The notes below the pieces were generated by a model that ran no database searches, had not been told where the DNA came from, and was given only the letters and a program-made list of their open reading frames with translations. A program made the position numbers and the translations under genes. Positions 2,335 to 28,897 of a DNA stretch of 40,090 nucleotides are shown piece after piece; position 1 is the first letter of the stretch, and every line of letters begins with the position of its first letter. This stretch comes from a virus, in IMG/VR virus record IMGVR_UViG_3300048890_000052, positions 1 to 40,090 of that record; one strand, 5' to 3'.

Positions 2335-4139
2335 CCCGCCACCGAGAACGAGATCGTGGGGGCGGAGCTATAGGTCAGCGCCCGCGTCTCACCAGCCGGC
2401 CAGAACTCGATGCTGTTGCTCGCCCAGGTAATGGTGCCAGCACCATTGCGATTGATCCCTGTGACCGCACCGCCCCACATGAACATGACGAGGTTCATGC
2501 CGGTGGCGTTTGTCATCGCGACCGTCGTGGCCGCGAGCGTCGGCAGATTGGATGGGGTGAACGGCGCGCCCGCGATCAGCACACCGACCGAGCTGCCCAC
2601 AAACGCGGCCAGCGTGCCGCCGCCAGAGGGGTTCGGATTGGGGTTGACGAGCAGCAGGCGGCCACCGGCGGTCGAATGCACGGCATTGCTTGAATAGGCC
2701 CACTGCCCGCCGATAAACGTGTTGCGCGTGGCGTTCGCGGCGTCCTGCACCACGCAATAGGAGACGTTCTCCATGTCGCAGTTCGTGAAGCTGTTGCCGT
2801 AACTGAAGCCGGTCGTAATATGGAAGGCCTTCTGCGCCGAGCCGTAAGACCCCCTGAAGTTGCCGAACGCGCATTCCCTGAGCTGAACGGCATCGCCCTG
2901 CCCACCGACATAGCCGCCCGACCCGCAGTTGATGACCGCCAGGATATCCGGGTTGAACACCGCATTGAACTGCGCCCCGATCGCCGCCGACGTCGTGTTG
3001 AAGTTCTGCACCCCGACATTGTGGAAGCGCAGCTCATTGATCTGGTCCGAGAAATCGGCCTGGCCGACCGTGAACACCGGCCCGGCGGCATCCCCGATAA
3101 AGCCGATATCGGCAAAATCAGGATAGGCGCAGCTGGCCGGTGACGGCACCGACCCGCCGCTGCATGTCAGCAGGAAGTTATTGCCAGGGAGGCCCCGGAA
3201 ATCGAATGCGGATTTTTGCAGGCCGCTGCCGAATATCTTGAACCCCGTCGAGAAGAACGGCAGCATGTCCAGGGTGAAGATCGCCGTCATCGGGTAATAG
3301 GTCAGGCCCCCCGGCGGTGGCGGGACATAGATCGACCGCTTTGTCGCCGCCATGCGCGCCACGGCCTTGGTCAGCGCAGGCACCCAGTTCGAACCATCGG
3401 CCACCGCGTAATAGTCATGGAGGTTGATCGGCGCTTCAGACAGGACTTGCGCCAGTGTCCGCGTCTGCGCGCCCGTGCCGCCGTCATTACAGCCGACCTG
3501 CGCCGCGCCGGCGCTGCCCGCGAGCGTCGCCGCGTCGACCTTGCCGTCGAGCGCATCCTTGACGGTCGCGCCATCATAGGCGACCAGCTCGGCGCCGAGG
3601 CCTGCGATGTCATCCGCCAGGTCCGCGCGCAGCGACGGATCCGCCACGCCGCTCACCGCGATCGGCACCAGCACGTTGCCGGCATTGAGGCCGAACACCT
3701 TGCCCTGGAAGCTGGCCAGCGGACCCATGGTCGGCGCCGTCTCGCCATCGCGCACCTTGAACGCGCGCAGCGCCGTATCCGCGATCTTGTCGTCCTGTTC
3801 CTGGTCGACCAGCATCGATCGATCGAGCGCAGCCTCATGGCTTTCCGCCGGGAAAGCATCGCCCGTCGTGTAGTCGGTCGACTGGGAGCGCGCGGTTTCG
3901 CGGCGAAACCGCAGCGTCGCACCGGCCACCGACGACACCAGCGTCGCGCTGCCGCCGGCATCCGTCGAACCGCCTGTCGTCGAGAAATCAACCCCGATCG
4001 CCAGAGCGACGACGGATCCATCCGCCAGCACCCGCGTCGCGCTGATCGACCCAGCCAGGAACCGGAACGGCAGCGCAAATGTCAGCGTGACGCCATTCTC
4101 GATATAATCGATTTTCGACGTGAGGGCGGCGACGGTCAT
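2331..4139 (-). CDS. Tailspike / tail fiber (602 aa), probable beta-helix receptor-binding protein
   Basis: ATG 4139 preceded by GAAGGGAA. Lies directly after the internal virion proteins (T7 gp17 position). The G/N/S/T/A-rich C-terminal two thirds is typical of beta-helical depolymerases. Confidence 0.65.
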   Translation of the reverse strand: MTVAALTSKIDYIENGVTLTFALPFRFLAGSISATRVLADGSVVALAIGVDFSTTGGSTDAGGSATLVSSVAGATLRFRRETARSQSTDYTTGDAFPAESHEAALDRSMLVDQEQDDKIADTALRAFKVRDGETAPTMGPLASFQGKVFGLNAGNVLVPIAVSGVADPSLRADLADDIAGLGAELVAYDGATVKDALDGKVDAATLAGSAGAAQVGCNDGGTGAQTRTLAQVLSEAPINLHDYYAVADGSNWVPALTKAVARMAATKRSIYVPPPPGGLTYYPMTAIFTLDMLPFFSTGFKIFGSGLQKSAFDFRGLPGNNFLLTCSGGSVPSPASCAYPDFADIGFIGDAAGPVFTVGQADFSDQINELRFHNVGVQNFNTTSAAIGAQFNAVFNPDILAVINCGSGGYVGGQGDAVQLRECAFGNFRGSYGSAQKAFHITTGFSYGNSFTNCDMENVSYCVVQDAANATRNTFIGGQWAYSSNAVHSTAGGRLLLVNPNPNPSGGGTLAAFVGSSVGVLIAGAPFTPSNLPTLAATTVAMTNATGMNLVMFMWGGAVTGINRNGAGTITWASNSIEFWPAGETRALTYSSAPTISFSVAG

Positions 4140-4152
4140 TGCCCAATTCCCT

Positions 4153-6576
4153 TCATTGGAGCGTCTCCCCGAACATGGCTTCTGGGCTGGGGGCGTGGTC
4201 CGGTGCCGTCTCACCGGGTGCCCAGTAATATTCCGTGCGCTGGTCGCGGGCGCGCTTCTCCATGCGCCGCCACGACTGGCGATAATTGGGATCGATCTCT
4301 TCCTGGATCTGGTCCGTCACCAGCCGGTCGAAGGCGAGCTTGGCGTACCAGAGCGACCCGCCGGGCAGTTCCTGCCGCGCCAGCTTTGTCGCCGCCCAGG
4401 CGGGATGCTTTGATTTTACGATATCGGCGAGCGACTGCACGTCCTGCGCGACCGGGCCTGCCATCGTCTCGGCAATGCCGCCGCCGAAACGGTTCTGGGT
4501 CGACTGCAGGAAATCGCCGAAAATGCCGAAGCCGCCGCCCTGCAGCACCGCCGCGCCCCAGAAATCCTTATCGTCCATCGGCCGTGGGTCTTTACCGCCG
4601 GCGAGCGCCTTCAGCTGCATGGCCAGGCCACCCATCAACGTCGTGCCGATCACCAGTCCCGCGGCATAGCGCGCGGCATTGCCCGCCGATTGCTCCATGA
4701 CCCGGCGCCCCTGCTGGATCAGCATCGAGATCCCGAACGATTTGAACAACAGCGCCGAGCGCACGATCTCGCCCGCGATCGTGCCCTTGGGCGCGACCGA
4801 GTTGATCAGCGCCCGCGTGCGCAAATCCGCCACCGGCACCGCAAAATCGGTTTCCTGCAGGATCATCTCGAGCATCCGGTCACCGAGCGCCTGGTCCTCG
4901 ACATTGGCCGGCTTGATCCACGGCACGCCCCGGTCGACCTCGAGCGGCGTCGCGCGGATACTGTCCCAGCCGCCCGCGTCGATACCGTGCCGCGCCAGCG
5001 CCCCGCGAAACGCCGGATCGAGCTTGTCGAAGCCCTTGACGCTTTCGTCGGTGATATGGCCGAGAAATTCCATGCCGAATGCCCAGCGCCCCGCCTGCGT
5101 CCAGCGCGACAGGCCGGATGCGCGCAGCACGCCCTCGGCCAGGCGCCGCGAGATCTCGCCGGTCAGCTCCTCGTTGAGATAGCGGCCCTGGGCGGCCGCG
5201 CGCTGGCCCCATTCCTCGGCGATCAGGCCCAGCCGCACCGCCAGTTTCTGATCCTCTTTGGAGCCGGGGCGCAGCAACTTGGCATAGTCGCGGATCATCG
5301 AAGCGGCAGGCAGCCCGTTATATTTGCGGGTCGAGAACTGGAATGCCGTGTCCGTGACCGCCGACAGCGTCGCGCTGCCGAGCTTCGCTGCCGTCTGGAA
5401 ACTGCGCAGCGCCGAGAAGGCCAGTGCCAGCTTGCGGTTTTCAGGGCGGTTGGACGATCCCGTGATCTCGCCCCACAGCCGGTCGATCTGCTTGCCGCCG
5501 GCATGGGCGCGGTCGATCGCCTTGCTGTCAGGCGCGCTGTCGGTCGCGGCCGTCTTTTCGATCCAGTCCTTGATCCAGCCGACCGTGGCATTGGGATTGG
5601 GGCCGAGGATCTCCATCATCGCGGTTTCGCGGGACAGGCTATCGATATGCCCCATCATCGCGTCGAATGCGGTGCCCGATCCGAACTGCTGCTGATAGGC
5701 CGACCAGCTCGGCGCATCCTTGAACACCAGGAAGCGCGCATCGCCGTGGCGGCTCGCCATGATACCCTGTCCGGGCGAGCCCGCGGCGCGCTTCGACCAG
5801 CCCTCGCTGCGGATGCTTTCCCAGGTGTCGCGCAACGCCGCATCGAGATCCCGATCGGTGAAGGGCGCGCCGGTGTCACGATCGATCATCTGCGCGCGGT
5901 CGAGCAGCGGCACGATCGTGTCGCGCCACGCCTCGTAGCCGGCGCGCCGAACCTTGATGCTGTCATGCGCCTGCGGCAGGCCCCAGCGCTCGATCTTGCC
6001 GATATCGCCGCCGGCGGCGTTGAACCGCTTGCGCAGCATCTCGGCCGCCTCGCCCCAGGCACCGGCGAGCTCCTTGGCGGCGAGGTTGCCACTATCCTCT
6101 CCGAACGCTTCCTTGACGATATCGCCGAGCTGGGCGCGGTTGCGCAGCTGCCCGAACACATTGCGGCTATGATCGGCGAGGATCTGGTCGATCATCGCAT
6201 GGGCACGGCCCCGGATCGCCTTGCGCCGCCCCTCGACGTTAGAATAGGCCGCGCGGCCGTCGCGATCGAGCAGCGCCAGCGCGGCGCGCGGATCGATCGG
6301 GCCGTTCGCGCCCTTGCCGCCGTCAAAGCTGCCGAGCGAGGCGATCACGTCCTGCTGCGCCTTGACCTGCAACAGCATCCGGCGCTTTTTCAGGAGCACC
6401 TCATTCTCGAGGGCCTTGAGCACGGTTTGCGTCGCCAGCGCCTCGGCCGCCGCGCCGCCCATCTGGCGATCATAGACGTCGAGCAGCTGGCCATAGCGCT
6501 TGAGCGCCCACTCGCCCTTGCCCTTCGGGATCTTGCCCTGCTCGACCAGGTCGGGAATGCAAACGCCGGCGGCCAT
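4153..6576 (-). CDS. Internal virion (ejection) protein, 807 aa
   Basis: Position and size correspond to the T7 gp15/gp16 block. Gly-rich hydrophobic C-terminal segments (GLVIGTTLMGGLA, GGGFGIFGDF). Start preceded by cassette A. Confidence 0.65.
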   Translation of the reverse strand: MAAGVCIPDLVEQGKIPKGKGEWALKRYGQLLDVYDRQMGGAAAEALATQTVLKALENEVLLKKRRMLLQVKAQQDVIASLGSFDGGKGANGPIDPRAALALLDRDGRAAYSNVEGRRKAIRGRAHAMIDQILADHSRNVFGQLRNRAQLGDIVKEAFGEDSGNLAAKELAGAWGEAAEMLRKRFNAAGGDIGKIERWGLPQAHDSIKVRRAGYEAWRDTIVPLLDRAQMIDRDTGAPFTDRDLDAALRDTWESIRSEGWSKRAAGSPGQGIMASRHGDARFLVFKDAPSWSAYQQQFGSGTAFDAMMGHIDSLSRETAMMEILGPNPNATVGWIKDWIEKTAATDSAPDSKAIDRAHAGGKQIDRLWGEITGSSNRPENRKLALAFSALRSFQTAAKLGSATLSAVTDTAFQFSTRKYNGLPAASMIRDYAKLLRPGSKEDQKLAVRLGLIAEEWGQRAAAQGRYLNEELTGEISRRLAEGVLRASGLSRWTQAGRWAFGMEFLGHITDESVKGFDKLDPAFRGALARHGIDAGGWDSIRATPLEVDRGVPWIKPANVEDQALGDRMLEMILQETDFAVPVADLRTRALINSVAPKGTIAGEIVRSALLFKSFGISMLIQQGRRVMEQSAGNAARYAAGLVIGTTLMGGLAMQLKALAGGKDPRPMDDKDFWGAAVLQGGGFGIFGDFLQSTQNRFGGGIAETMAGPVAQDVQSLADIVKSKHPAWAATKLARQELPGGSLWYAKLAFDRLVTDQIQEEIDPNYRQSWRRMEKRARDQRTEYYWAPGETAPDHAPSPEAMFGETLQ

Positions 6577-6640
6577 CAGTCACGCCCCCAGGTAAAGTGG
6601 GGGCCGGTTTTCCGGTTCGGGGGCGTGACCACAAACATCA
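6574..6640 (-). promoter_or_regulatory. Conserved intergenic cassette, copy A (structured RNA or regulatory element)
   Basis: Minus-strand TGATGTTTGTGGTCACGCCCCCGAACCGGAAAACCGGCCCCCACTTTACCTGGGGGCGTGACTGATGG. CACGCCCCC (6581-6589, plus strand) pairs with GGGGGCGTG (6619-6627). Inner hairpin CCGG-AAAA-CCGG. About 80 percent identical to copy B. Confidence 0.6.
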
Positions 6641-9157
6641 TAGGCACTCCCGGATCGCGGCGAGCGCTGCGGCGTCTTCGTCGAGCTCAGCCAGCACGTC
6701 GGCCAGGCCGCGTTCGTCGCCATCCTCGAAGCGGAAGGTCATCTGCTCGGGCAGCGCTTTAATTTTTGGTGCCGCTGCCGAGGCATCGGAAATTAAACGG
6801 CGCGCGTCATGGTCGAGGCTGTCGGCCTGCAGCTTGGCGCCATCGCCATGCGGATCCGCGAACGGCTCGAGCGCGCGAGGATCATCGCCGGCCGACAGCG
6901 GCGATGCGTCGCGAGCGATAGCATTGCCCTCAGCACCGCTCGCCGCTATTCCCGGCTTCGCCACGGCGCCGGGGGAGCCGTCCCGCGCACCAGCTGCAGC
7001 ACGTCGGTCCTCCGCTGCAGCCGTGGCCTGCCTACCCCGTCGGGCATTTACGAATGCCGCGCCTTCCGGCGTCAGATCCCCGGATCCACTCAATCGGTCG
7101 ACAGGGTAGCCGGCGCGATCGAGCGCATCATAAAGCTTCGAACCAATCCCCTGGCGCCGAAACTCTGGACGCACATAGCTCGAGACTTCGTTCGTGATGG
7201 CGAGCGCCTCAGGGCTGATCGGCATCTGCACCGCCGCCTGCGCTCGGCCGCTGCCGTCTCGGAAAACAGCCGTGGCGAAGTGTCCTTCATCGTCCATGAC
7301 CGAAATGCCCGGTCGCCCCTTTTCCGGCTGAAAGCCAAGGATCGACGATGGGCCGAGAGTGTCATCACCGGCCGCACTTTGCGGCACGGTTGCCTCGACC
7401 GGTTCTGCCTGTCGTGCGGCAATGCCCTCAAGGGCAGCCACTGGCGGCACGCCCATCGCATCGGCATCGGCGGCGTGCTGCGCGATACGCCAGTTGCCAT
7501 CATCAGGAAACAGGTCGCGGCGCAGCTCGGGCGCTTCGAAGATCTCCCGCTCCGGCAGATCCACCGGCACGCGCTGTGCGTCCAGCGCGGGATCCCGCGC
7601 GACCGGCGCACCATCGGGCGCGGCGTCTAACGCCCGCGCCACATCCTCGCCATTGCGACCAAGCGCCGACAGGCCGCGGCTGAGGTCGCCACTGGTCTCT
7701 GCTCCCGCCCCCGGCCGCATGAACTTGCGGATATAGGCATCGAGCACCGCGGCCTCATCGCCCTGCGCGAGGACGGCGCGACCGCCATGGTCGCCGCCCT
7801 GCAACTCCCAATGGAGGAACTCGAGCTGCTCCGCGCGCGTAGGGCGCGGACCATAGCGGCGGATCAGTTCGCCCTTGCGCGGACCCAGCCACTGGCCGAG
7901 CCCAATCGCGCCGCTATCGGGGTTCAGGGCCGTGTGGCTACTCGCCGCCTCGGCCGCCACGCCCGCCGCGATCCCCCGCGCCTGCGCCTCGCTGTAGCCC
8001 TTGGCCTTGAAGAAATCGACGATGTCAGGCGCCAGCGACGGCGAGCCGCGCGCCGCCACCGCCGCGACCCGTCCGATCGGCGCGGACGCCACGTCGCCCG
8101 TATTGGTGCGCAGGATCGCTTCCATCGTCGATTGCAGGCGCGCGGCATGGGCATCGAGCCCGGCAGGCGTGGCAACGTAGGGACTGGCAGCGCGGACCTC
8201 GCCCTCGCGGGTGATGACATGGATCGCCGCCATTTCGTCGGGCGTGCGGATCTCGGTCGGGACCGCCTGCGAAAAGGCGGCGGCGATCTCATGGTCGCTG
8301 ACATCGTCGAGGCCGGTATGGCCGAGCGCCATGGCGATGCGCCGGTCGGCGGGCACCGCCACGTCGAAGGCCGCGCCGACTGCCTTGCCCGCGAACTTGG
8401 CCGCCTGCGGCACGACAACGTCGCCGAACACGCCGCCGGCGGCCGCCATGCCGACCTGGGCGACCGCTTCGCCCGCCGTCAGCTCCTCGCCCAGCTTCGC
8501 GCGCCCTTCAGCGACCAGCGGCAGCTGCAGCGCCTCGAGCGCGCCATTGACCAGCGCCGACCGCGCGACCTGGGCAAGGATCGTCTTGCCGCCGCCGCCC
8601 AGCGGCAGCGAGGCGATATTGACCGGATCGTGCATGGTTTCCCAGGTGCCGGCGGCAAAACCCGCCAACGTCTGGCCAGCGCCCGAGGAGCGGCCGAGCA
8701 CGTCGCGCGCACCAGCCCGCGCGGTCTTTTCCCGGTCGATGATCCCCTGCTGGAACACACCCGCATCGGCAGGCACGCCTTTGAGGAATGCCGGATCGCG
8801 CGCGCGGATCCCTGCCAGCTCCTTGAAGATCTCGCTCTGCTGTTCATCGCGCGTCACGCGCCGGTCGAGGATCGAGCCGAAATCGAACGGACCGCTCTCG
8901 GCCGACGGCCGCCGTGCCATTGACCCCTGCCAATAGCCGGGATTGACCATCGGCTTCAGGCCACGGCGCGCGCGATCGGCATTGACGGCGGACAGCACCG
9001 GCTCATAGGCGGTGCGCAGCCGATCGGCTTCGGCATCGGTGCGATCGCCGCGCGCCAGGACGCGATTGGCATCCCACACTTCGCCATAGGTCGCTGGCCG
9101 CTCCACAGGGCGCGGCGGCGGCGCTTCGGGGATCGGGGTGACGAACGCCCCGGTCAC
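6638..9157 (-). CDS. Internal virion protein (839 aa) with phage tail lysozyme-like domain and GNAT-like acetyltransferase motif
   Basis: FFKAKGYSEAQARGIAAGVAAEAASSHTALNPDSGAIGLGQW (aa ~380-500) resembles the phage tail lysozyme family. YVRPEFRRQGIGSKLYDALD (aa ~660-680) matches GNAT motif A (R-x-x-G-x-G/A). Confidence 0.75.
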   Translation of the reverse strand: MTGAFVTPIPEAPPPRPVERPATYGEVWDANRVLARGDRTDAEADRLRTAYEPVLSAVNADRARRGLKPMVNPGYWQGSMARRPSAESGPFDFGSILDRRVTRDEQQSEIFKELAGIRARDPAFLKGVPADAGVFQQGIIDREKTARAGARDVLGRSSGAGQTLAGFAAGTWETMHDPVNIASLPLGGGGKTILAQVARSALVNGALEALQLPLVAEGRAKLGEELTAGEAVAQVGMAAAGGVFGDVVVPQAAKFAGKAVGAAFDVAVPADRRIAMALGHTGLDDVSDHEIAAAFSQAVPTEIRTPDEMAAIHVITREGEVRAASPYVATPAGLDAHAARLQSTMEAILRTNTGDVASAPIGRVAAVAARGSPSLAPDIVDFFKAKGYSEAQARGIAAGVAAEAASSHTALNPDSGAIGLGQWLGPRKGELIRRYGPRPTRAEQLEFLHWELQGGDHGGRAVLAQGDEAAVLDAYIRKFMRPGAGAETSGDLSRGLSALGRNGEDVARALDAAPDGAPVARDPALDAQRVPVDLPEREIFEAPELRRDLFPDDGNWRIAQHAADADAMGVPPVAALEGIAARQAEPVEATVPQSAAGDDTLGPSSILGFQPEKGRPGISVMDDEGHFATAVFRDGSGRAQAAVQMPISPEALAITNEVSSYVRPEFRRQGIGSKLYDALDRAGYPVDRLSGSGDLTPEGAAFVNARRGRQATAAAEDRRAAAGARDGSPGAVAKPGIAASGAEGNAIARDASPLSAGDDPRALEPFADPHGDGAKLQADSLDHDARRLISDASAAAPKIKALPEQMTFRFEDGDERGLADVLAELDEDAAALAAIRECL

Positions 9158-11142
9158 AGCCCGAGATCCTTGGCGAGACGCTCGATATTCAGCGTCCAGG
9201 TGCGACCGCCCTTGACCGTGACTACCGTGTCATTGGGCCCATGGAATTCATAGAGCCCGTCGGGCCGCTGCACCGGCACATAGCGGCGCAACTGGTCGGG
9301 CGTCATCGCCTGCCCGTCATGCCAGACCGGGGCATTGGGCGTGTCGGGCCGGTACTGCAGGCGCGCGAGCGTGCGATTGAACCGATCATCGGTCATGGTC
9401 GGCGGCAGCAACACCGATTGGCGGTTCCAGCTACCGAGCCCGCCGAGCTTCTCGCCATTGGGCCCGCGCGTGCCGCCCAGCGCCTGGTGCACGAACTGGG
9501 CATAATCCTTGTCGTCATAGTCCTGCGCACCATGGCGCCCCGCCCAGTCGGCATAGAGATTGCGCGAGGCTTCAAACGCGGCGTTAAGATCGCTCTGCGA
9601 TAGCAGCGACGCGGCAACGCCGACGCGCGACAGGAAGGCATCGCGCGCCATCTTGCCCGCCGCCCCGTCGACCAGGTCGGGACGCGCCTTGCGGGCCTCG
9701 ATCCCGTTCGTGGCGGCCACCCGACTTTCCGGCGGCAACAGCGCCAGGCGGCCGAGCATCGGATCATTGGGCGCGATCTGGCGCGCCGCCTGCAGCACGC
9801 CATAGCCACCGATCGCAGAGATCTGGTTTGCCACGTCGAGCCGCCCCTTGGGCGAGGCCGTTGCCTGGGCGCGCAACGCGGAAGCCTCCGCCCCGGTGAA
9901 GAACGGCACCGGCCGTCCCGCCTCCGCCCCGACAGCGCGCTGCCAGCTTGAGCGCGCAGCGATCGCGGCGGGATCGCTGAGATTGAGCACAGGCGGCGGC
10001 ATGCCGTTCTTGGCCGCCCACTCACCAGGATTATTGTTGAACGTCGCAACCGCGCTGCCGCGCATGTCGCGCAGCGCCTTGAGGCGAATATCCTGCTCGG
10101 GCGAGCGGCTCTTGAGCCCCGCAAGCCGGTTGATCTCGCTATCGAACTGCTCGGGACGCCAGACATCGGCCTCGCGGATTACGCCGCCCTTGACGCGCAG
10201 CACGCCGATCTTGGTCGCCCCGCCCTGGTCGCCGATCGCCTGCAGCTGCGCCTGCAGTCCCGCGAGCTGGCCGTCGGGCACCTGGACCCCAGCCGAGATC
10301 CGCGTCTCGGCCGTCTGCACCTGGTCGCGCAGCGCGGCCGTCTGCAGCGCCTGCTGGTGCGCCGCCGCCGCATCGAGACGCCGCACCTCGACCGTCGCGC
10401 CACCGCGCGCCTGCTCGACCTGCTGCGGCGTCAGGATATCGTTGAACGCACCCGCATCGAGCAGCGCGATCGCCGCCTTGGGATTGGTGTCGTTGAGGCC
10501 GTTGAGATAACCGACCGTCACGGTCTCGTCGTGATGGCGGACCAGCTTCTCCTTGACGTCGGCGGGCACGCCCTGCAGCGCGTCGATCGACTGCCGGCCA
10601 AGGGTCAGCTCTTCGGCAAAGCTCTTGGGATCATGCGCCAGGCGCGCGCGATTGGCCGCCAGATCCGACGCGCTTTGCGTGTCCGTAACCAGCTTGCCGA
10701 CCCGCGCGCCAGCCTCATACTGATATTCGGATCCGGCGAAGCGCGCGCCGAACTCGACGATCTGCTGCTTGGCCGCGCGCAGGACATGGCTGTTCGTGAT
10801 GCCCTGGGTGAGCTGCTCGGCCTGCCCGGACCACCAATCGTCCATGGCCTTGGCATGGCCTGCCGCGCCGGGCTGGGCAGTGTTGCGGGCGTCGATCGAC
10901 GCCTTGTCCGCTGCCAGCCGGGCCTCGGCAAACTTCGCGCTGAAGTCGGCAAGCTGCTGGTCGGCTTCCTGCCGCTTCTCGATCTGGAAATTCTGGATCT
11001 GGCCGCGATGGATGGTATCGCCGAGCTGCCCCATCGCCTCGCCGACCCCGGCACCGTAGCTTTCCGCCGAGGCATAGGGCAGCGGCGTGGTGCGCGCCGG
11101 CCCAACCCGCTGCTGATAGATGCGCTCCTCGGCCGCCATCAC
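9154..11142 (-). CDS. Internal virion protein, 662 aa
   Basis: ATGA-coupled on both sides within the internal-protein block. Alpha-helical, A/Q/R-rich composition as in T7 gp15-like proteins. Confidence 0.65.
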   Translation of the reverse strand: MMAAEERIYQQRVGPARTTPLPYASAESYGAGVGEAMGQLGDTIHRGQIQNFQIEKRQEADQQLADFSAKFAEARLAADKASIDARNTAQPGAAGHAKAMDDWWSGQAEQLTQGITNSHVLRAAKQQIVEFGARFAGSEYQYEAGARVGKLVTDTQSASDLAANRARLAHDPKSFAEELTLGRQSIDALQGVPADVKEKLVRHHDETVTVGYLNGLNDTNPKAAIALLDAGAFNDILTPQQVEQARGGATVEVRRLDAAAAHQQALQTAALRDQVQTAETRISAGVQVPDGQLAGLQAQLQAIGDQGGATKIGVLRVKGGVIREADVWRPEQFDSEINRLAGLKSRSPEQDIRLKALRDMRGSAVATFNNNPGEWAAKNGMPPPVLNLSDPAAIAARSSWQRAVGAEAGRPVPFFTGAEASALRAQATASPKGRLDVANQISAIGGYGVLQAARQIAPNDPMLGRLALLPPESRVAATNGIEARKARPDLVDGAAGKMARDAFLSRVGVAASLLSQSDLNAAFEASRNLYADWAGRHGAQDYDDKDYAQFVHQALGGTRGPNGEKLGGLGSWNRQSVLLPPTMTDDRFNRTLARLQYRPDTPNAPVWHDGQAMTPDQLRRYVPVQRPDGLYEFHGPNDTVVTVKGGRTWTLNIERLAKDLGL

Positions 11143-11585
11143 CCGGCCGCCTTCTTTGCCGAGGCCCAGTCCGTCCCCTGGCCGACAATCGTATTGCCGA
11201 TATTGAAGCCCATCGACAGCAGCGCGCTATTGCCCTCGCGCCGGAACTGGTCGGCCTTCACATTATAGCCGCGCGCGCTACTCGCCGCCGCGCGCCGCGC
11301 GCTGAGCGCATCGATCGTGCTATTGATCTGGCTTTCCGCCAGCGCATCGAGGGCGCTGCCGGTGCCGAGCTGGAACCCGCTCGCCCCCTGCGCGCCGATC
11401 TGCTCGCCCATGGCCTGGCGCGCGCCATCGCGGATCCGCGCTTCCTCGGCGACGCCATTGTTGAGCTCAGCCACCGCATTCTGGTCGGCCGCCCGCGCAT
11501 TGGCCTTGGCCGCCGCGTTGGTGCCGAGACCCTTGACCAGCGAACCGCCGACCGCGAGGGCGATGGGTAGCGCCGCCTGGACCAT
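11139..11585 (-). CDS. Small internal virion protein (148 aa)
   Basis: Start MVQAALPIALAVGG at 11585 follows cassette B (GGGGG SD). Hydrophobic N-terminus. Occupies the gp14-like position. The longer 308-aa ORF in the track overlaps the upstream gene and is rejected. Confidence 0.55.
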   Translation of the reverse strand: MVQAALPIALAVGGSLVKGLGTNAAAKANARAADQNAVAELNNGVAEEARIRDGARQAMGEQIGAQGASGFQLGTGSALDALAESQINSTIDALSARRAAASSARGYNVKADQFRREGNSALLSMGFNIGNTIVGQGTDWASAKKAAG

Positions 11586-11649
11586 CAGCTGCGCCCCCAG
11601 CAAAAGTGGGAACCGGTTTTGCGGCTCGGGGGAGCGGCCACAAACATCA
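11583..11649 (-). promoter_or_regulatory. Conserved intergenic cassette, copy B
   Basis: Minus-strand TGATGTTTGTGGCCGCTCCCCCGAGCCGCAAAACCGGTTCCCACTTTTGCTGGGGGCGCAGCTGATGG. It spans from the upstream stop TGA to the downstream ATG, exactly as copy A does. Confidence 0.6.
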
Positions 11650-12174
11650 GCTGATCCTCTCGAACAGCATGTGCGTCTGGCTGGCGGCGCCATATTTGCG
11701 CAGCACCGACGCGGGCTTGAGGCCGATCGTCGTCGCCCAGCGCATCTCCGGCGTTGGCACCTCACACAGAACCGCGAGCAACTCACCCGCGTCGAGATCG
11801 GGGAAGCGATCGAGAACGATTTCGGCGTCGGCACATTCGACGATGGCATCGACGCGCGGCAGGTCGACCAGCGCCAGGCGCTCTCGGGCAAAACGCGTGA
11901 TCGCCAGATGATGCGCACCCACATCGTCCGAAAGTGTCGCCCACACACTCGCATGCGCATCGGGGAACACGTCGATAATGCCGAACAAGGCGACGATGCG
12001 CTCGCCCAAACCTTCACCCTCGAGCGCCGCCCACGCCTCACGGCCGCCCGCCAGCGCCGCAGCATCCTCCGCGCTCATGTCGGCGCGCAGGCCGAGTTGC
12101 ATGGCCTGGCTGGGCTGGCGCCGGATCTCGACACCGTGGCGCGCCTCCATCGGGACGAAGCGAAGCGCGCTCAT
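11647..12174 (-). CDS. Virion-module protein (175 aa), gp13 position; weak GNAT-like C-terminus
   Basis: ATGA overlap with tail tubular B. The C-terminus RWATTIGLKPASVLRKYGAASQTHMLFERI resembles the GNAT C-terminal GF-x-x-x-G-x-x-x-x-Y pattern. No clear motif A. Confidence 0.5.
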   Translation of the reverse strand: MSALRFVPMEARHGVEIRRQPSQAMQLGLRADMSAEDAAALAGGREAWAALEGEGLGERIVALFGIIDVFPDAHASVWATLSDDVGAHHLAITRFARERLALVDLPRVDAIVECADAEIVLDRFPDLDAGELLAVLCEVPTPEMRWATTIGLKPASVLRKYGAASQTHMLFERIS

Positions 12175-14402
12175 CCGTCGTCCCCGATCTCGAATTTCGG
12201 CATCAGCGCGGTGAGCGTCGCCGGCAGCGGCGTGTCCGAAATGAACTCGGCGCGACCATCGCGATCATAGCCACCACCGACCGCCTTACCCGTATCGCCG
12301 GTGAATAGCGGAATTGGGGCATCCATCGCATCGCTCGCACGGCGATCGATCAGATTGTCGAGCACGCCGCCAAAAGCCCCGATCCTGAGACCCGACGTCT
12401 CAAGCAGGCGCGCGGCCAGGCGCACCAGCCGATGGCGCAGGCCCTGGGTCGATTGCCCGTTCATGCTCAGCGGCGGCCGCAGCGTCACGCAGCGCGCGGT
12501 ATAAGGCAGGCCCACGGTCATGCGATAAGGGGCATTGGGCACCGAGGCGGCGGGCAGGTCGAACGCGCCCGCGCCATCGACCGCGACATTGGGGATATGC
12601 GCCCCGTTCGCCAGCACCGCGACCGTCTCACCGGCGAGATGGGTCAGGCCGGTGAAATGCGTCTGCCCGGCGCTCGCCATCACCGTCACGCCGAAATCGA
12701 CGAAAAACGCATCGGCGATCGGGTCGCCATCGTCGCGCCACTTGGCCATGCGCTGGATCGACTTGGCGCCGTTGCGCTCGATCAGCGCCCACAGCTCGTC
12801 GTTGACGCCATCCGCATCGGTGACGCACACCGCCGAGAGTATCTTGCCGCCGCCCGCGATCGTGCGCCGCGCAAAGCCCTTTACTTCCTGCTCGGGCGCA
12901 TGGGGATGCACCGCCAGCACGCCATCGGCGCGCACGCAGAACAGCAGCTCCTCCGGTTCCTTCTGGAACGCGAACTGGATCACGCCGGACTTTGTGATAT
13001 GCCGCGCCCAGACGGTCATATTATTGGCGACGTAGCGGTCGCGGGCGAAGTCATAGCCGACCTCGCGCAGCTTGCGCGCGCCGCGCTGGGCAAAGATCGT
13101 CGAGGTGGCAATCTGGACCGGGAACACCGGCGCGGACCCGTAGAAGCTCTGCGGCTCGGCCGAAATATTGGCGCCGGATAGCGCGGCTTGATTGTTGAGC
13201 GGCCCGACCGCCAGCTCGCGCGAGGCCGTGCCGACGATCAGCTTGCGGTCGCCCGCGATCCACAGCGGCGGATCCTCCGTCGCCAGCGTGCGCCGGAACG
13301 CCATGTCCGGCGCCAGCTGGCCCGAACTCGCCTTGGTCGCAAAATTGATCTGGCCGCCGCCATAGTCCCCCATGACGCTGCCATGCACATCGAAATCCTT
13401 GATCAGGATCGCGCGGCTGTTCCAGACGGCCACCAGGCTCGGCCAGCCCTTCGCCACCGAAAATGCGCCATGCGACCAGCGATAGGTCGCGACGCTGGTC
13501 ACGCTGTCGGGCAGGCGGCGCAGCACCGTGCCGGTCGCCGTCGTTCCGCCGACGGTCGCGATCTGGACGATCCCGAAATCGTCGGAGACATAGGTCCATT
13601 TGATCCCGTAGGGACCCTTGGTGTTCAGCTCATCCTGCTTGCCCGCGCCGTCCCAGGCGGCGCCTTCCGTGTGGATCGGCTGCACGCTGCCCGTCACACC
13701 GGCGGTCGCGGCCTCGTAAACCTTGCCATCGGATCGCACCTTCATGCCGATGGTGATGGCTTTCATCCCCGCTTCCCAGGCGGTCACGTCGGAGAAGTCG
13801 AGCGCGTCGATCCGGAAGAGGGATCCTACATGCCCGGCCAGGAAGATCGCCGAGGACGCCGTGACTGTCACCGCGCCGGTCACGCCGCTGCTGGTGACCG
13901 TGATCGCGCTGTCGGTATTCTGGTCGAGGAACGGCCCGTTCTTGAGGGTGACGGCGGCATGCGCGAATGTCACCGCCCCGGTCCGGGTCAGGCTGGCATA
14001 GGGGTAGCTGCCATGGGCAAGATAGAGCCGGTCATAGCTCTGCTGGAACGACAGGCGCGGCGCATCGGCCGCCGCATAGGGCGTGACGACTTCATAGGCG
14101 ACGCCGGGCGCGGTCTCGATCCGGCCGCCATTGGTGAAGAACCGGGCCTTGGCCGCGCCCCATTCGATCACATAGTCCTGCGTCAGGTTGAAGCGGAACT
14201 CGCCCAGCCAGGTCGAGCTGGCATCGGCCGCGCAGATGTATTCGAAGCCCGGCATCTTGACGATCGGCCCCTCGACCGTCGGGCAGAAATTCTCGCAGAC
14301 CTCGAGGCCGATCGCATAGACGGCGGTATCGGTCCGGCCCGCCATGCGCGGGGAAAGCTCGCCGCCGTTGAAACTGGTGATGAGGTGCCGGATCAGCCCC
14401 AT
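12171..14402 (-). CDS. Tail tubular protein B (T7 gp12-like nozzle), 743 aa
   Basis: The N-terminus MGLIRHLITSFNGGELSPRMAGRTDTAVY matches the conserved SFNxGELSP motif of podovirus tail tubular B. Start 14402 shares 1 nt with the upstream stop. Confidence 0.8.
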   Translation of the reverse strand: MGLIRHLITSFNGGELSPRMAGRTDTAVYAIGLEVCENFCPTVEGPIVKMPGFEYICAADASSTWLGEFRFNLTQDYVIEWGAAKARFFTNGGRIETAPGVAYEVVTPYAAADAPRLSFQQSYDRLYLAHGSYPYASLTRTGAVTFAHAAVTLKNGPFLDQNTDSAITVTSSGVTGAVTVTASSAIFLAGHVGSLFRIDALDFSDVTAWEAGMKAITIGMKVRSDGKVYEAATAGVTGSVQPIHTEGAAWDGAGKQDELNTKGPYGIKWTYVSDDFGIVQIATVGGTTATGTVLRRLPDSVTSVATYRWSHGAFSVAKGWPSLVAVWNSRAILIKDFDVHGSVMGDYGGGQINFATKASSGQLAPDMAFRRTLATEDPPLWIAGDRKLIVGTASRELAVGPLNNQAALSGANISAEPQSFYGSAPVFPVQIATSTIFAQRGARKLREVGYDFARDRYVANNMTVWARHITKSGVIQFAFQKEPEELLFCVRADGVLAVHPHAPEQEVKGFARRTIAGGGKILSAVCVTDADGVNDELWALIERNGAKSIQRMAKWRDDGDPIADAFFVDFGVTVMASAGQTHFTGLTHLAGETVAVLANGAHIPNVAVDGAGAFDLPAASVPNAPYRMTVGLPYTARCVTLRPPLSMNGQSTQGLRHRLVRLAARLLETSGLRIGAFGGVLDNLIDRRASDAMDAPIPLFTGDTGKAVGGGYDRDGRAEFISDTPLPATLTALMPKFEIGDDG

Positions 14403-14989
14403 CAGCGCACCGCCCCGTAGCCGAGATAGGCCTCTTCCCATCCCGTGAGATCAGGCTCGACCGGCGGGTTCTCGCGCGCGTCGGCGCGCACCGCCTGGCT
14501 CAGCGCGTCCTGGTAGAGCTTCCAGCCGGTCCCGACATCATAAGCGGAACCAGCGATGCGCTTGCCGATCTGGACCGCGATGCGGCGCGCGAAGGCGACG
14601 GCGAACAGGCTGTCCCACAGCGCGCTTTCGGGAACGTCGATCAGGTAGCGGACATAGACCGGGCCGGCGCTGTCGCAGAGGACCGAATGCCCCTCGAGCT
14701 GATAATCGTCCTGGGCGAGATTGAGCACCTCGACCAGGCGCAGGCTCTCGGCGGGCAGCGGAAAACTATAGGCCCAGGGGTATGGAACCTCACTCAGCGC
14801 CTCGGCGGCAAGCCCCTTGCGCCGCATCGCGAAATTCCATGTGTGATCGCGGATCGCGGCTTCGCGGCACAGATCCCACACCGCCTTGATCGTCCGCCCG
14901 ATATGCGTGTCATCGTCGGGCGACATCAACTGATCGTCCTCGCCGACCAGCGAGGCCGCCATATTGGCGATGGAGACATAATCGGCCAA
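14402..14989 (-). CDS. Tail tubular protein A / adaptor (T7 gp11-like), 195 aa
   Basis: TTG start preceded by GGAAGGA. The N-terminus ADYVSIANMAASLVGED follows the I-x-N-x-A-L-x-x-L-G pattern of podovirus gp11-like proteins. Lies directly upstream of tubular B. Confidence 0.7.
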   Translation of the reverse strand: MADYVSIANMAASLVGEDDQLMSPDDDTHIGRTIKAVWDLCREAAIRDHTWNFAMRRKGLAAEALSEVPYPWAYSFPLPAESLRLVEVLNLAQDDYQLEGHSVLCDSAGPVYVRYLIDVPESALWDSLFAVAFARRIAVQIGKRIAGSAYDVGTGWKLYQDALSQAVRADARENPPVEPDLTGWEEAYLGYGAVR

Positions 14990-16828: not shown

Positions 16829-16873
16829 GCGGGGGATTTTGTGCCGGATCCCCCGAACCGGCGTGACGCAAAA
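16829..16873 (-). promoter_or_regulatory. Diverged third copy of the intergenic cassette in the capsid leader
   Basis: Minus-strand TTTTGCGTCACGCCGGTTCGGGGGATCCGGCACAAAATCCCCCGCC. It shares TTTG-GTCACGCC and the CCGG..AAAA..CCCCC core with copies A and B. Forms the hairpin CGGGGGAT/ATCCCCCG. Confidence 0.4.
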
Positions 16874-16899
16874 TCTCAGATAACGACTCGCGCTGTCAA
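16872..16899 (-). promoter_or_regulatory. Sigma70-like promoter candidate for the capsid operon
   Basis: Minus-strand TTGACA (16899-16894), a 16-nt spacer, then GAGATT (16877-16872). Located in the 236-nt gap between the scaffold stop and the capsid start. Confidence 0.4.
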
Positions 16900-16907
16900 G
16901 CGGTATT

Positions 16908-20719: not shown

Positions 20720-22275
20720 CCTCCATTGAAACGAAACTCGTCATAATCGCCGTCGACCGTGGCGGCCGCGCCGCCGCCGCGCGGCTGCCCGCGAATGTCG
20801 GAAATCACATGCTCGCCCTCGAGCGCCGCATATTGCTCGGCGTCGGCGACATGGGTGTAGATCGTGTCGGCGATCTCGAGATTGCCGCGCAGCTCGCCCG
20901 TGCTCATTTCCTGTTTCTGGTAGCGATAGCCACCCGAATGAGCCTTGATCAGGTGCTTGCAGCCGGGGTCGACATAGTATCCGTCCTGCTTGCCCATCGC
21001 CTTCCAGATCGCCTCGTTGCGCAGCCCCGCAGCGTTGCTTTTCGCCTTGAAGATCTTGCCCATGCCGATCGCCGCCTGGACCGCCAACACCCAGTCGCGG
21101 CCATCATTCGGCCGATCCTCGGCGGCGAAGGCGGCGGGATCACAGACCAATTTGACCTGGTCGCGCTGGATCCCCGGAAAGCGCTCGAGCAGCGCCTGTT
21201 TCACCCGCCGGCCGAACCCTTCCGCGCTGATCTTGACCAGCGCCTTGCCGCCGGTGGCCAGGCTCACCACCTCGCCGAGCGTACGAATATCGCCCTGGGC
21301 GTCGCGCTGCAGGAAGACGGCGGCGGCGCTGTAGCCCTGGTCGATGCCGACGATCAACTTGCGCCGCTTGTCCCAGCGCTCCTCGCGAACGTGGCGGGTA
21401 TAGACGAATTCATCATTGACCGGCTGCCCGTGCATCAGCGGCACCGGCTTGTTGTGTACCATGCGGTCGACATAGTTTTTCTTGTGCCGGTTCGCCGCGA
21501 TCTGCAGCACGTAATAGCCCCGGCCATTGTGCAGATTATGGAGGTTTTCCGCGTCCGGCTCCATCCCGCCGGGCTGCACGAACGTCTCGATCAGCTCGCG
21601 CCCGCCGAGCGCTTCCTTGAGCTGGCCCGTGTCCGCGTCCGAGAGCTCGCCGAGCTGCTTGTCGAATGCGAGCTGGTAGGCATGATTGTCGATATCCGGC
21701 ATGTTCATCGACACGATGATCTGCGGATCGACGACATTGCTCGGGTCGAGATCGGAGAAACGCCCGACGCGGCCCGTCAGGAATGGCACCAGGTCGGCGG
21801 GCTGCAGATCCGCCTCATCGATCATCACCGCGTTGATTTCCCAGCCGCGGCAGGCTTCCTCGACCGTCTGCTGGCCGATGCCCCGGAACTCATATTCCAT
21901 CTCGAGGATCTCGGTCGGCTTGCCAGTCTCCGGATCGCGCTTCAGCACCTTGGCGAACTGGTGCGTGTAGGGCGGCGACCAGTTGAAGCCCTTGTCCTCG
22001 GGCACGATGTTGAACCAGCTCTTGAGCGTCGTCGACTTGAGCGACGGATAGCTTTCGCGGATGACGCCGATGCGGGCCTTGCGCCGCCAGATCCCGCGCG
22101 CATCCTGCACCCGGCCTTGTTTCGCGCCGACCATGAGCCCCGTTTGCAACGCCGCCATCGTCTTGCCCGACCCCACCGGCCCGATAATGACCTTGATGAA
22201 CGCCCGCGACCGCAGAAACGCATCCGCCACCGGCCCCGGCGAGCGCAACAGGCGAGGCTTGGCGGGCGCGTTCAT
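20716..22275 (-). CDS. terL: Terminase large subunit
   Basis: Walker A IIGPVGSGKT, Walker B AVMIDEAD, C-terminal nuclease-sized domain. Preceded by a coupled small-subunit gene. Confidence 0.9.
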   Translation of the reverse strand: MNAPAKPRLLRSPGPVADAFLRSRAFIKVIIGPVGSGKTMAALQTGLMVGAKQGRVQDARGIWRRKARIGVIRESYPSLKSTTLKSWFNIVPEDKGFNWSPPYTHQFAKVLKRDPETGKPTEILEMEYEFRGIGQQTVEEACRGWEINAVMIDEADLQPADLVPFLTGRVGRFSDLDPSNVVDPQIIVSMNMPDIDNHAYQLAFDKQLGELSDADTGQLKEALGGRELIETFVQPGGMEPDAENLHNLHNGRGYYVLQIAANRHKKNYVDRMVHNKPVPLMHGQPVNDEFVYTRHVREERWDKRRKLIVGIDQGYSAAAVFLQRDAQGDIRTLGEVVSLATGGKALVKISAEGFGRRVKQALLERFPGIQRDQVKLVCDPAAFAAEDRPNDGRDWVLAVQAAIGMGKIFKAKSNAAGLRNEAIWKAMGKQDGYYVDPGCKHLIKAHSGGYRYQKQEMSTGELRGNLEIADTIYTHVADAEQYAALEGEHVISDIRGQPRGGGAAATVDGDYDEFRFNGG

Positions 22276-22943
22276 GCGGCCTCCTCCTCATCATCGACCG
22301 AAGTGAAATCCGCATCGAGCACGTCCTGGACCTCGGCATCGCTGTGCGTGACGCCGGCGATAATGAGATCCGAGAGCCCCGAAAAATTCATGTCGACCGC
22401 CACCGGCCGCTTGCTCTCGATGTAGGGCAGCAACCCCTCGGCGCAGCGGATCCTGAGCGACTGCGCCGCCTCATAGGTGAGCGTCTCCTCGACCACCTCG
22501 ACGACCTTGTCGGCGCGATCCTTGCCGCCCTTCAGGATCTTCATCACCGTGCGGCGGCTGTTCTCGATCAGGACTTCGGGCGCCGTGCTCTGGATCTGCA
22601 TCATCGTGATCGCCGGATGCTGGCCGTACTGGCCCAGATACCGCGCGAAATCATCCGTCCGCTTGTTGCGCGATCCCTTGGGCCGGCCACGCTTCACCTC
22701 GCGCGCCTGGCGCAGCACCGACAGCCGCCCGGCATGGGGCCCCAGCCGTTCGCGGGCTTCGACCATGTCCTCGGGCGTGACGTCCTCGAGCAGGTCGAGC
22801 TGCTCTTCCTCGCGCTGCGCCGTCTCGACAAGCGCCTTGGCGCCGTCCAGCGCGTCGGTGATAACCTTGTCCTGGCCGGTCTTAGTTGACATGGACCCGG
22901 ACCCCGCTAGTCTCGCCCGATCGACACAGCCCCCAACCGGCAT
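22272..22943 (-). CDS. terS: Terminase small subunit candidate (223 aa; alternative start 22892)
   Basis: ATGA-coupled directly to terL. Contains a basic KRGRPKGSRNKR DNA-binding-like stretch. ATG 22943 is preceded by CTGGGGGTCTG, the same SD context as cassettes A and B. Confidence 0.6.
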   Translation of the reverse strand: MPVGGCVDRARLAGSGSMSTKTGQDKVITDALDGAKALVETAQREEEQLDLLEDVTPEDMVEARERLGPHAGRLSVLRQAREVKRGRPKGSRNKRTDDFARYLGQYGQHPAITMMQIQSTAPEVLIENSRRTVMKILKGGKDRADKVVEVVEETLTYEAAQSLRIRCAEGLLPYIESKRPVAVDMNFSGLSDLIIAGVTHSDAEVQDVLDADFTSVDDEEEAA

Positions 22944-23246
22944 CAGACCCCCAGCCCCGAGCTCGCATGCGAGCGGAGCGGGAAAGCCGCTCCCCCGACC
23001 CCGTCTGCAGCCTCAAAATTCCGGGCGCCTCCGCACCCTTGGCTGGACAGTCATCGTTGATGGCGATCCAAATTGGGAAAATCGCGTGCGCCAAGGGGCG
23101 GGGGAAGGGGCGCGGCGCGGATGGGGGCCCGCCCCCCCCTGCCGGCCGATCGATGCCCCCCATGCCCTGCCCAGGCCGACCGGTCAGCCCGCATAGCTGA
23201 CGCCGCGCTGCAAGAAATGGCTGTTTCCTGCGGCTCTCAGAGGATC

Positions 23247-28753: not shown

Positions 28754-28897
28754 CACCGCCTTGCTCAGCGGCGATCAGCATCACCCGATCGAGCGCCGCC
28801 TCGTGGCTTTGGGAGGGAAAGGCGTCGCCCATCACGCGGCTTTCTCGAATTCAGGCGCGCCGTGATATGGACTAACGACTCGAGGGGGGAATATCGA

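Follow-up and report, generated by a model that had tools for sequence, protein, structure and literature searches.

Two host-type palindromic repeats, probably accommodated as bridging mini-cistrons, in the late operon of a sphingomonad podophage

This study concerns two related cassettes, copy A and copy B, in the late gene block of the viral record IMGVR_UViG_3300048890_000052, of which the whole stretch of 40,090 nucleotides (nt), referred to here as the window, was analysed. A minus-strand gene chain runs from 14441 to 4153 in the window, and its neighbouring genes overlap by a few bases except at these two places (Table 1). The initial annotation had described one element present twice in this block, and this holds: two 68-nt minus-strand stretches, at 6573-6640 (copy A) and 11582-11649 (copy B), are 82% identical (direct-repeat family D6), and motif searches with the element halves over the whole window, allowing up to 3 mismatches, found exactly these two, against chance expectations of 0.38 and 0.00. 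It is also correct that the element runs from the upstream TGA to the downstream ATG in both copies. The gene picture given for the block was roughly right, except that copy A precedes the gene of an 807-amino-acid (aa) virion structural protein and not the tailspike gene itself.

Both places had been read as the only intergenic gaps of the block. They are indeed the sole non-overlapping junctions of the chain, but each "gap" is itself an open reading frame (ORF) of 20 codons, which had not been noticed. In both mini-ORFs the A of the ATG is also the last base of the upstream TGA, and the A of the mini-ORF's own TGA begins the downstream ATG; since both ends overlap the neighbouring genes in this exact manner, the apparent gaps do not interrupt the run of overlapping genes. 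An additional in-frame ATG one codon further up in copy A (6641-6639) offers an alternative overlap of the ATGA type. The mini-ORF starts are preceded, at 5-8 nt, by sequences resembling a Shine-Dalgarno (SD) site, GGGAG and GAGAGGA. Public gene calls (JGI, Logan) on the related contigs L440-L446 leave a 61-nt gap at every cassette and contain no 20-codon ORF, and in L440 a 6-codon remnant is swallowed by the GTG-extended start of the downstream gene. Programmed frameshifting was dropped on inspection, as there is no slippery heptamer and the upstream frame stops before the hairpin.

Table 1. Positions of the two cassettes, of their structural parts and of the genes around them in the window.
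Feature	Coordinates	Strand	Remarks
Copy A	6574-6640	-	63-nt hairpin-repeat insertion with duplicated TGATG on either side; D6, model R1
Copy A lower stem, 5' arm GTCACGCCCCC	6619-6629	-	all 11 bases (11/11) in Watson-Crick pairs with 6579-6589
Copy A lower stem, 3' arm GGGGGCGTGAC	6579-6589	-	contains G5 tract 6585-6589, SD of the 807-aa gene, 8 nt ahead of its ATG
Copy A upper stem GGAAAA/TTTACC, loop CCGGCCCCCAC	6591-6613	-	one A.A mismatch, 5/6 pairs; alignment to model
Mini-ORF A	6576-6638	-	20 codons and stop, MFVVTPPNRKTGPHFTWGRD
Copy B	11583-11649	-	63-nt hairpin-repeat insertion with duplicated TGATG, within 9-nt CAGCTGATG repeat; D6, model R1
Copy B hairpin	11591-11635	-	lower stem GCTCCCCC/GGGGGCGC, 7/8 pairs; G5 SD 11594-11598
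Mini-ORF B	11585-11647	-	20 codons and stop, MFVAAPPSRKTGSHFCWGRS; TGATG overlap at each end
Tail protein	12171-14441	-	gene chain
175-aa protein of unknown function, upstream of copy B	11647-12174	-	phrog_4177; ends ..FERIS and stop
148-aa internal virion protein, downstream of copy B	11139-11585	-	phrog_418, 1.7e-19
662-aa protein	9154-11142	-	gene chain
839-aa internal virion protein, phage tail lysozyme domain, upstream of copy A	6638-9157	-	PF18013, 1.8e-11; ends ..RECL and stop
807-aa virion structural protein, downstream of copy A	4153-6576	-	phrog_684, 5e-177; then tailspike
CTGGGGGTCTGATG	22941-22954	-	start of 223-aa ORF 22272-22943, upstream of probable large terminase

Both copies hold a hairpin with a copy-specific lower stem of about 8 bp, of which 8/8 positions pair in copy A (11/11 when extended) and 7/8 in copy B; the copy B lower stem holds two mismatched pairs. 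The outer stem of a C5 and a G5 tract that had been proposed is present, and in copy A it forms a perfect stem of 11 bp. A compensatory difference between the copies had likewise been reported for one flanking pair; it is genuine and more extensive than claimed, with three pairs changed on both sides, two in the lower stem (T-A to C-G and A-T to G-C) and one in the upper stem (G-C to C-G). The upper stem of copy B, GCAAAA/TTTTGC, is fully paired (6/6) and its loop, CCGGTTCCCAC, is the consensus of the repeat family described below, from which the loop of copy A departs by CC in place of TT. The computed fold of copy A has a free energy of -31.4 kcal/mol and a z-score of -3.48.

The core of the element is widespread outside this phage. 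As CCGNAAAACCGGNNCCCACTTT it was found at no fewer than 120 loci in bacterial genome contigs, a related pattern at 120 or more loci in metagenome contigs and the bare core in at least 119 viral contigs, the strict form of the core being rare. Among the matches listed, the named genome records are almost all Alphaproteobacteria (Bradyrhizobium, Mesorhizobium, Hyphomicrobium, Devosia, Maricaulis, sphingomonads, Rhodospirillaceae and Brucellaceae), and all 17 of the 17 matching plasmid or chromid records are alphaproteobacterial. Viral scans which required GGGGG or a back-translation of the peptide found nothing, while looser cores did match. A typical copy has a weakly conserved T-rich leader, a lower stem of 8-10 bp varying from copy to copy, an asymmetric internal loop, and an upper part made of the stem G-N-AAAA/TTTT-N'-C and the 11-nt loop CCGGTTCCCAC. 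The loop and the A4/T4 collar were fixed by the search patterns, hence their conservation is not an independent measurement.

The stems, in contrast to this fixed core, vary and covary. In the 119 genome copies with the fourth T, the N:N' pair is G:C in 62, C:G in 30, A:T in 14 and non-complementary in 13. The lower stem was assessed in the genome set, which is unselected on anything 3' of the core: the longest Watson-Crick run averages 7.1 for the real arms and 4.5 for mismatched partners. The 3' arms are diverse, with 191 distinct 8-mers among 354 copies. A seed alignment of 58 bacterial, metagenomic and other viral sequences, holding no sequence from the window or from the related locus L005, has 94.5% of its cells paired, compared with 74.8% in shuffles and 40-52% in slid controls, and 8/8 lower-stem pairs change on both sides. 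The seed had been pre-filtered for a stem of at least 6 nt, and therefore the arm test in the genome set is the unbiased one.

A covariance model built on this seed, R1, matches copy B (11581-11645) with 54.3 bits (E 1e-13) and copy A (6572-6636) with 44.0 bits (E 1e-10), in both cases over model positions 1-64 of 64, the next best match in the window reaching 11.1 bits. Moreover, both copies carry the core AAAA-CCGG-NN-CCCAC-TTT(T) with complementary N and N'. Because a model made without any window sequence matches both copies over their full length, this comparison establishes the two cassettes as members of the widespread CCGGTTCCCAC-loop family of hairpin repeats. Other structural claims made for the element did not survive. 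The inner hairpin CCGG-AAAA-CCGG, said to be extended as GAGCCG/CGGTTC in copy B, lacks covariation across the family (68.8% paired; shuffles, 69.2%), and a version extended to GAACCG/CGGTTC was rejected on the same ground; the conserved pairing in the family is G-N-AAAA/UUUU-N'-C. The diverged third copy placed at 16829-16873 reaches 8.4 bits (E 3.7), a level shared with about 25 noise matches, is unfolded (z +0.41) and is missed by the motif search with 3 mismatches. The start context CTGGGGG..TGATG ascribed to terS does exist at 22941-22954, but it consists only of an SD and an overlapping start and is not a copy of the element; it shows only the coupled-start style usual in this phage.

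No match in the window was found with Rfam at the gathering threshold, and the bacterial copies gave only sub-threshold partial matches, to BASRCI408 and BASRCI27, Brucella small-RNA candidates which evidently hold a copy. String searches of the literature for the loop sequence returned only unrelated eukaryotic papers. Family members are found in both orientations relative to the neighbouring genes, and G.T and A.C mispairs are in similar number (30 and 38), with no excess of the former; the two observations together give the signature of a palindromic repeat acting at the DNA level rather than that of a one-strand RNA element. Gene ends are preferred, as convergent intergenic regions hold 24 (genomes) and 32 (metagenomes) copies versus 7 and 4 in divergent promoter regions. 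Between co-directional genes, according to a crude gene caller, the repeat lies antisense in 26, 19 and 39 cases and sense in 11, 7 and 22 (genome, metagenome and viral sets, respectively), and the window copies are therefore in the minority orientation.

Larger arrangements of the repeat were also observed. Head-to-tail arrays occur in bacteria and in some viral contigs (L093 at 2552-2680, L218, L208, L257, L365, L126 and L228), with periods of 55-63 nt, or of 110-122 nt for L126 and L228. In L138, L166, L122 and L129 the hairpin is the right arm of a two-arm composite of about 100 nt with a T-rich linker and CTAG/TA termini; the second hairpin, about 110 nt upstream of the core, is built from the same copy-specific stem sequence (L138, L166, L129, L122 and L101), and the left-arm loop of L166 holds GAATC. 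The upstream hairpin of L101 has a different, palindromic loop, GTGGGGCCAC. By a strict test, an upstream duplicate of the copy's own 3' arm accompanies only ~3-5% of all copies, most copies being solo hairpins.

The polarity of the event can be read from the relatives of the phage. We examined 80 viral-contig loci (1.24 Mb) with homologs of the 807-aa protein at 40-78% identity, and in nearly all of them junction A is a direct stop/start overlap (..TGCCT[A/G]TGAGC.. or ..TGCCTCTGATGTCG..) with no insert. Junction B in outgroups is also a direct overlap without insert (..ATCGCCTGATGG..; ATCGGCTGATGGTG). Closer relatives were gathered through the 148-aa protein, and those at 55-64% identity for this protein have direct overlaps at both junctions; these uninserted relatives include a prophage in the chromosome of Sphingobium sp. 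YG1 (L451, AP018518.1) and one in a 184-kb bacterial contig (L447, ENA k141_34854, 183,872 bp). The group is therefore temperate, with direct access to host repeats. In the 80%-identical relative (L440-L443) copy A is present and copy B absent. Hence the expectation that the element would be conserved among relatives holds for copy A in this one relative and fails elsewhere, the element being absent from both junctions in nearly all of them. As the relatives have direct TGATG/ATGA overlaps at both junctions, this comparison identifies the ancestral junctions as TGATG overlaps and each window copy as a 63-nt insertion with a duplicated TGATG.

Contigs identical to the window are available from three independent assemblies. 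Two of them (L444 and L445) carry both inserts, which are therefore not an assembly artefact, while the third (L446) has copy B and stops short of junction A. Among the 80 related loci only L005 carries a copy, at a different junction: at 14923-14981, after the gene of an M15 peptidase, it forms an exact mini-ORF overlapping both neighbours, and the flanking genes (M15 peptidase endolysin and membrane protein) are not homologous to the lysis genes of the window. Comparison with this copy revealed the invariant bases of the element. A weak model match in L034 is AT-rich coding sequence and not a copy. At junction A, L017 and L026 have unrelated short GC-rich inserts, not recognised by R1, which form the doubly overlapping mini-ORFs MRAAAPQPRQAGAPARREK and MNVPTNKLAGAPE, each followed by a stop, and in L013 and L018 the upstream protein is extended there by ~8 residues. 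As for cultured phages, a DNA search of INPHARED found no close relative of the phage and no match to copy B was found, the capsid protein being only 29-38% identical to those of Pelagibacter and Ralstonia podophages.

The relative L440 allows the two junctions to be followed over a shorter distance. At its junction B only 21 nt are present, ATG TGC CGG GGG CGC AGC TGA, encoding MCRGRS and a stop (6 codons). Of the repeat this remnant keeps the 3' arm and tail, the 5' arm and the loop being gone. It retains both TGATG overlaps and the G5 tract and is unstructured (z +0.53); what survives in it is the coupling geometry and the SD, not the hairpin. Copy A of L440 folds at -34.0 kcal/mol (z -3.99) and has a further C-to-T change in the conserved CCCAC of the loop. 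Both overlaps flanking it (L440 14768-14832) read TAATG where the window has TGATG, which could reflect parallel changes at the two ends or a separate insertion event at a junction that already read TAATG. The upstream junction of this copy consequently reads TATAAT.

The doubly overlapping geometry is not confined to the two window copies. A bridging detector was applied to mini-ORFs that span the core and have no more than 45 codons, with decoy positions in the same loci as controls. It required a stop ending an open stretch of 80 or more codons no further than 4 nt from the mini-ORF start, and a start followed by 60 or more open codons no further than 4 nt from the mini-ORF stop. It was positive for 3/3 copies of the T7-like set (window A, window B and L005; decoys 1/120) and for 20/108 copies in viral contigs (18.5%; decoys 45/4146, 1.1%), compared with 6/127 in bacterial genomes (decoys 37/4727) and 5/128 in metagenomes (decoys 17/4696). 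Bridging is thus a recurrent arrangement, found in about 1 in 5 viral copies. The bridging peptides, such as MPGAAPEPQNRFPLLRGAA, MMRGMTLSKNRFPLFGVMP, MRRKSGNRFSDKRMAGER and VRASRKVGTGFRTRSMNKDKS, each closed by a stop, are unrelated because different frames and both strands of the repeat are used. Peptides of the VRASRKVGTGFRTRSMNKDKS type occur in six contigs in the same gene context with 1-3 substitutions, a more diverged version being found in L438. Between window copies A and B there are 12 differences, falling 4/4/4 over the codon positions and changing 6/20 residues, and both internal differences between copy A of the window and that of L440 are nonsynonymous. These patterns show the peptide itself to be unconstrained.

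The SD of the downstream gene lies within the repeat. In all five phage cases (window A, window B, L440-A, L005 and the L440-B remnant) a GGGGG or GGGAG is positioned 8 nt from the AUG, and its computed unpaired probability is 0.000-0.005 in the four intact copies (0.000 in copy A), against 0.505 in the L440-B remnant. Copy B has an alternative fold, which also buries the SD. Sequestration of the SD, as initially suggested, is therefore retained in so far as the G5 tract is computed to be buried in the four intact phage copies, but the idea of a phage-specific cassette evolved for the internal-virion-protein block is rejected, the element being a family repeat found in hundreds of alphaproteobacterial loci and absent from nearly all relatives of the phage.

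We consider it likely that each cassette is a solo host-type palindromic repeat inserted into a TGATG overlap in the late operon of a temperate sphingomonad podophage, in which the bridging cistron keeps the coupling of the neighbouring genes. In the most economical mechanism, ribosomes ending the upstream gene would restart at the overlapping ATG of the mini-ORF and pass through the hairpin while melting it, which would expose the G5 Shine-Dalgarno held in the 3' arm. They would then stop on the TGA overlapping the downstream ATG and restart there, so that translation of the downstream gene would still depend on that of the upstream one, as it did at the ancestral direct overlap. Independent initiation would be suppressed because the folded hairpin hides the SD, and the peptide itself would be a by-product. 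The inserts may persist because their 63 nt are readable as a 20-codon bridging cistron; the mini-ORF is the feature that best explains how they suit a translationally coupled operon.

Translation of the mini-ORFs and reinitiation after them are steps predicted from the geometry of the overlaps. Several observations weigh against this interpretation. As an RNA, copy B favours another fold at -33.6 kcal/mol, compared with -18.4 kcal/mol for the family fold. The flanking duplications, TGATG in copy A (5 nt), CAGCTGATG in copy B (9 nt) and GTGA in L005 (4 nt), are compatible neither with a transposase footprint of fixed length nor with one common mechanism. The collection counts are lower bounds, so the true nearest host copy may be missing from them, and the gene-context statistics come from a crude GC3-based caller. 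Furthermore, copy A is better preserved than might be expected of a neutral insert: the window and L440 are identical at 60/63 positions with 0/22 lower-stem nucleotides changed, whereas identity at the four-fold degenerate sites of the neighbouring genes is 51-74% globally and 81-87% locally, within the nearest 60 codons. At the global rate, 60/63 or more identities would have a probability of 6e-7 and an unchanged stem one of 4e-4; at the local rate the values are 0.008 and 0.025, respectively. The hairpin at junction A may thus be under purifying selection, or the tract may have been recently exchanged.

An extension of the same reading, which we regard as possible though rather unlikely, is that the repeat has been domesticated. 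Temperate alphaproteobacterial phages would capture it again and again where stop and start codons overlap, purifying selection would maintain it as a modular coupling valve, and its loop might be read by a conserved host factor. The hairpin would then hide the next SD in such a way that the downstream virion protein is made only by ribosomes coming from upstream, a notion to which we give the same modest weight. This version is allowed by the 95% conservation of copy A with its stem untouched between diverged lineages, by the stable inheritance of bridged copies in other phage lineages and by the SD-like 3' arms of the phage copies.

A somewhat less probable explanation is a dedicated phage cis-regulatory RNA, in which the mini-ORF would be incidental and the hairpin would set the ratio of ejection or virion proteins by SD sequestration, or serve as an RNase III/E processing site or an mRNA-stabilising site. 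It accounts for the full burial of the SD in the four intact copies, for the conservation of copy A and of its 22-nt lower stem beyond that of the four-fold sites, for the low z-scores of the copy A folds in the window and in L440, and for the G-rich, SD-like 3' arms of the phage copies, unlike those of typical bacterial copies. However, the element is a generic host-type repeat, both junctions are empty in nearly all relatives, and the closest relative lost the hairpin of junction B while keeping SD and coupling. Moreover, the family occurs in both orientations without asymmetry of G.U over A.C mispairs, and copy B does not favour the family fold as RNA. The orientation and wobble data would rather suit a site recognised as DNA, at which some conserved protein of Alphaproteobacteria, for instance a nucleoid or replication factor or an enzyme mobilising the repeat, would bind the loop CCGGTTCCCAC and its A4/T4 collar; the phage copies would then be important, or would spread, through this binding rather than through RNA. 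The tandem arrays of 55-63-nt period and the occasional two-arm composites agree with such a site, as does the seed, in which only the N/N' pair, its upper-stem neighbour and the lower stem vary and covary beside a near-invariant loop (loop and collar being fixed by the search patterns). We nevertheless find this improbable: it calls for a hypothetical binding protein, the element was kept in spite of the loop changes in copy A of the window (CC for TT) and of L440 (C-to-T in CCCAC), and the exact bridging-ORF framing of the phage copies is left unexplained, so that the translational argument is needed anyway.

The mini-ORFs could in principle encode a functional micropeptide of 20 residues (MFV..P..RKTG.HF.WGR.), present twice, for instance as a small virion or assembly factor. 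Copies A, B and L005 do share a reading frame despite an in-frame length difference of 6 nt, with the core P-x-RKTG-x-HF-x-W in common, and SD-like sequences precede the mini-ORF starts at 5-8 nt. The shared residues, however, simply reflect the invariance of the nucleotide core that encodes them, the differences between A and B are even over the codon positions, both changes between window and L440 alter the residue, other phages bridge the same repeat in other frames or on the other strand with unrelated peptides, and in L440 the copy B peptide is shortened to MCRGRS; a micropeptide is therefore very improbable. Least credible of all is a promoter, a terminator or attenuator, or a chance similarity. 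The stop context TATGAT (TATAAT in L440) does resemble a -10 hexamer, as initially noted for copy A, but there is no acceptable -35 and no promoter-like site was called over either copy. Similarly, an attenuator finds no backing in the absence of a T-run after the stem and of any terminator-like call overlapping either copy, and chance similarity is excluded by the motif-search expectations and the R1 scores.

The geometry invites comparison with known systems. In the bicistronic design reportedly engineered by Mutalik et al. in 2013, the coding sequence of a leader cistron is said to contain the SD for the gene that follows. The short leading cistron ends on a stop overlapping the next ATG (TGATG/TAATG), and its ribosomes unfold structure and are handed over downstream. 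The window cassettes share exactly this leader-cistron geometry, the analogy being one of function only; they differ as a natural version arising from repeat insertion and holding a very stable hairpin (about -31 to -34 kcal/mol). The RNase III processing sites of T7 are conserved across relatives. The window hairpins resemble them as stable hairpins between late genes of a T7-like podophage, but they are not conserved among relatives, originate from a host-type repeat and lie inside a mini-ORF.

By architecture, and compared by description rather than by sequence, the closest named relatives are CIR (Caulobacter, CcrM-associated) and Bru-RS1 and Bru-RS2 of Brucella, interspersed palindromic repeats conserved across Alphaproteobacteria which are mostly intergenic and of unknown function (Delihas review, PMC2229807). 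Some family members (L138, L166, L122 and L129) are likewise two-arm structures of ~100 nt, and the GAATC in the left-arm loop of L166 is as described for CIR (PMC2229807). The partial matches to the models of two Brucella small-RNA candidates are a further, indirect point of likeness. The window copies differ as solo 63-nt hairpins with no left arm, no GANTC (the CcrM site; GA.TC occurs in neither copy) and no TA termini; to their left lies the coding end of the upstream gene, in place of the ~100-110-bp two-arm unit of CIR/Bru-RS. REP/BIME and MITE-like repeats (Rickettsia RPE, ERIC, YPAL and Correia) are short hairpin repeats dispersed in genomes, co-transcribed with their neighbours and sometimes translated within or fused to ORFs (PMC2229807; PMC2759123). 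Like them, the CCGGTTCCCAC-loop family favours gene ends over promoter regions. The GTAG or CGTC tag at one end, as given for RAYT-associated REP (PMC3733652), is present on neither strand of either copy, and the window hairpin, at more than 50 nt with an 11-nt conserved loop, is outside the 20-40-bp palindrome size of REP. The retrieved copies each have arms of their own around a fixed loop, which would invert the pattern of MITE terminal repeats, and unlike RPE the window repeat forms its own cistron with overlapping stop and start on both sides instead of an in-frame protein fusion.

Other features of the window were observed besides the cassettes. On the plus strand, 32275-32549 is a tandem array of the 6-nt unit CGGCTA in ~46 copies, also with an 18-nt period, which encodes a Gly/Tyr/Asp/Ser-rich tail (..GSGYGDGSGYGDGSGYG..) in ORF 32009-32551. 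A 77-nt direct repeat (D5; 3791-3867 and 28757-28833, 73% identity) has its copies 25 kb apart, one within the N-terminal portion of the tailspike gene and one near the end of a 166-aa ORF, and may represent a shared adaptor-type segment. Finally, CTTGACAGCGCGAGTCGTTATCTGAGATTT at 16870-16900 on the minus strand, between the scaffold and capsid genes, resembles a sigma-70 promoter by eye and was not called by the consensus scan.

Interspersed palindromic repeats and translational coupling are already known kinds; the window element is a new phage-borne member of the family, and its probable accommodation as a mini-cistron is the noteworthy point. In the reading we favour, a bespoke regulator of ejection-protein stoichiometry would give way to a host-type repeat accommodated as a doubly overlapping mini-cistron, which would show one way in which compact coupled genomes absorb selfish hairpin repeats without breaking operon expression. 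It would also bring to light a class of ORFs of 13-40 codons which standard gene callers never report, and, as a natural system open to mutation, allow termination-reinitiation across a stable hairpin to be studied. The repeat subtype matches that of sphingomonads, in agreement with the Sphingobium prophage relatives, and so provides a clue to the host. More broadly, the repeats form a widespread covarying family with an 11-nt loop for which no Rfam model exists, and the alignment together with R1 could seed one.

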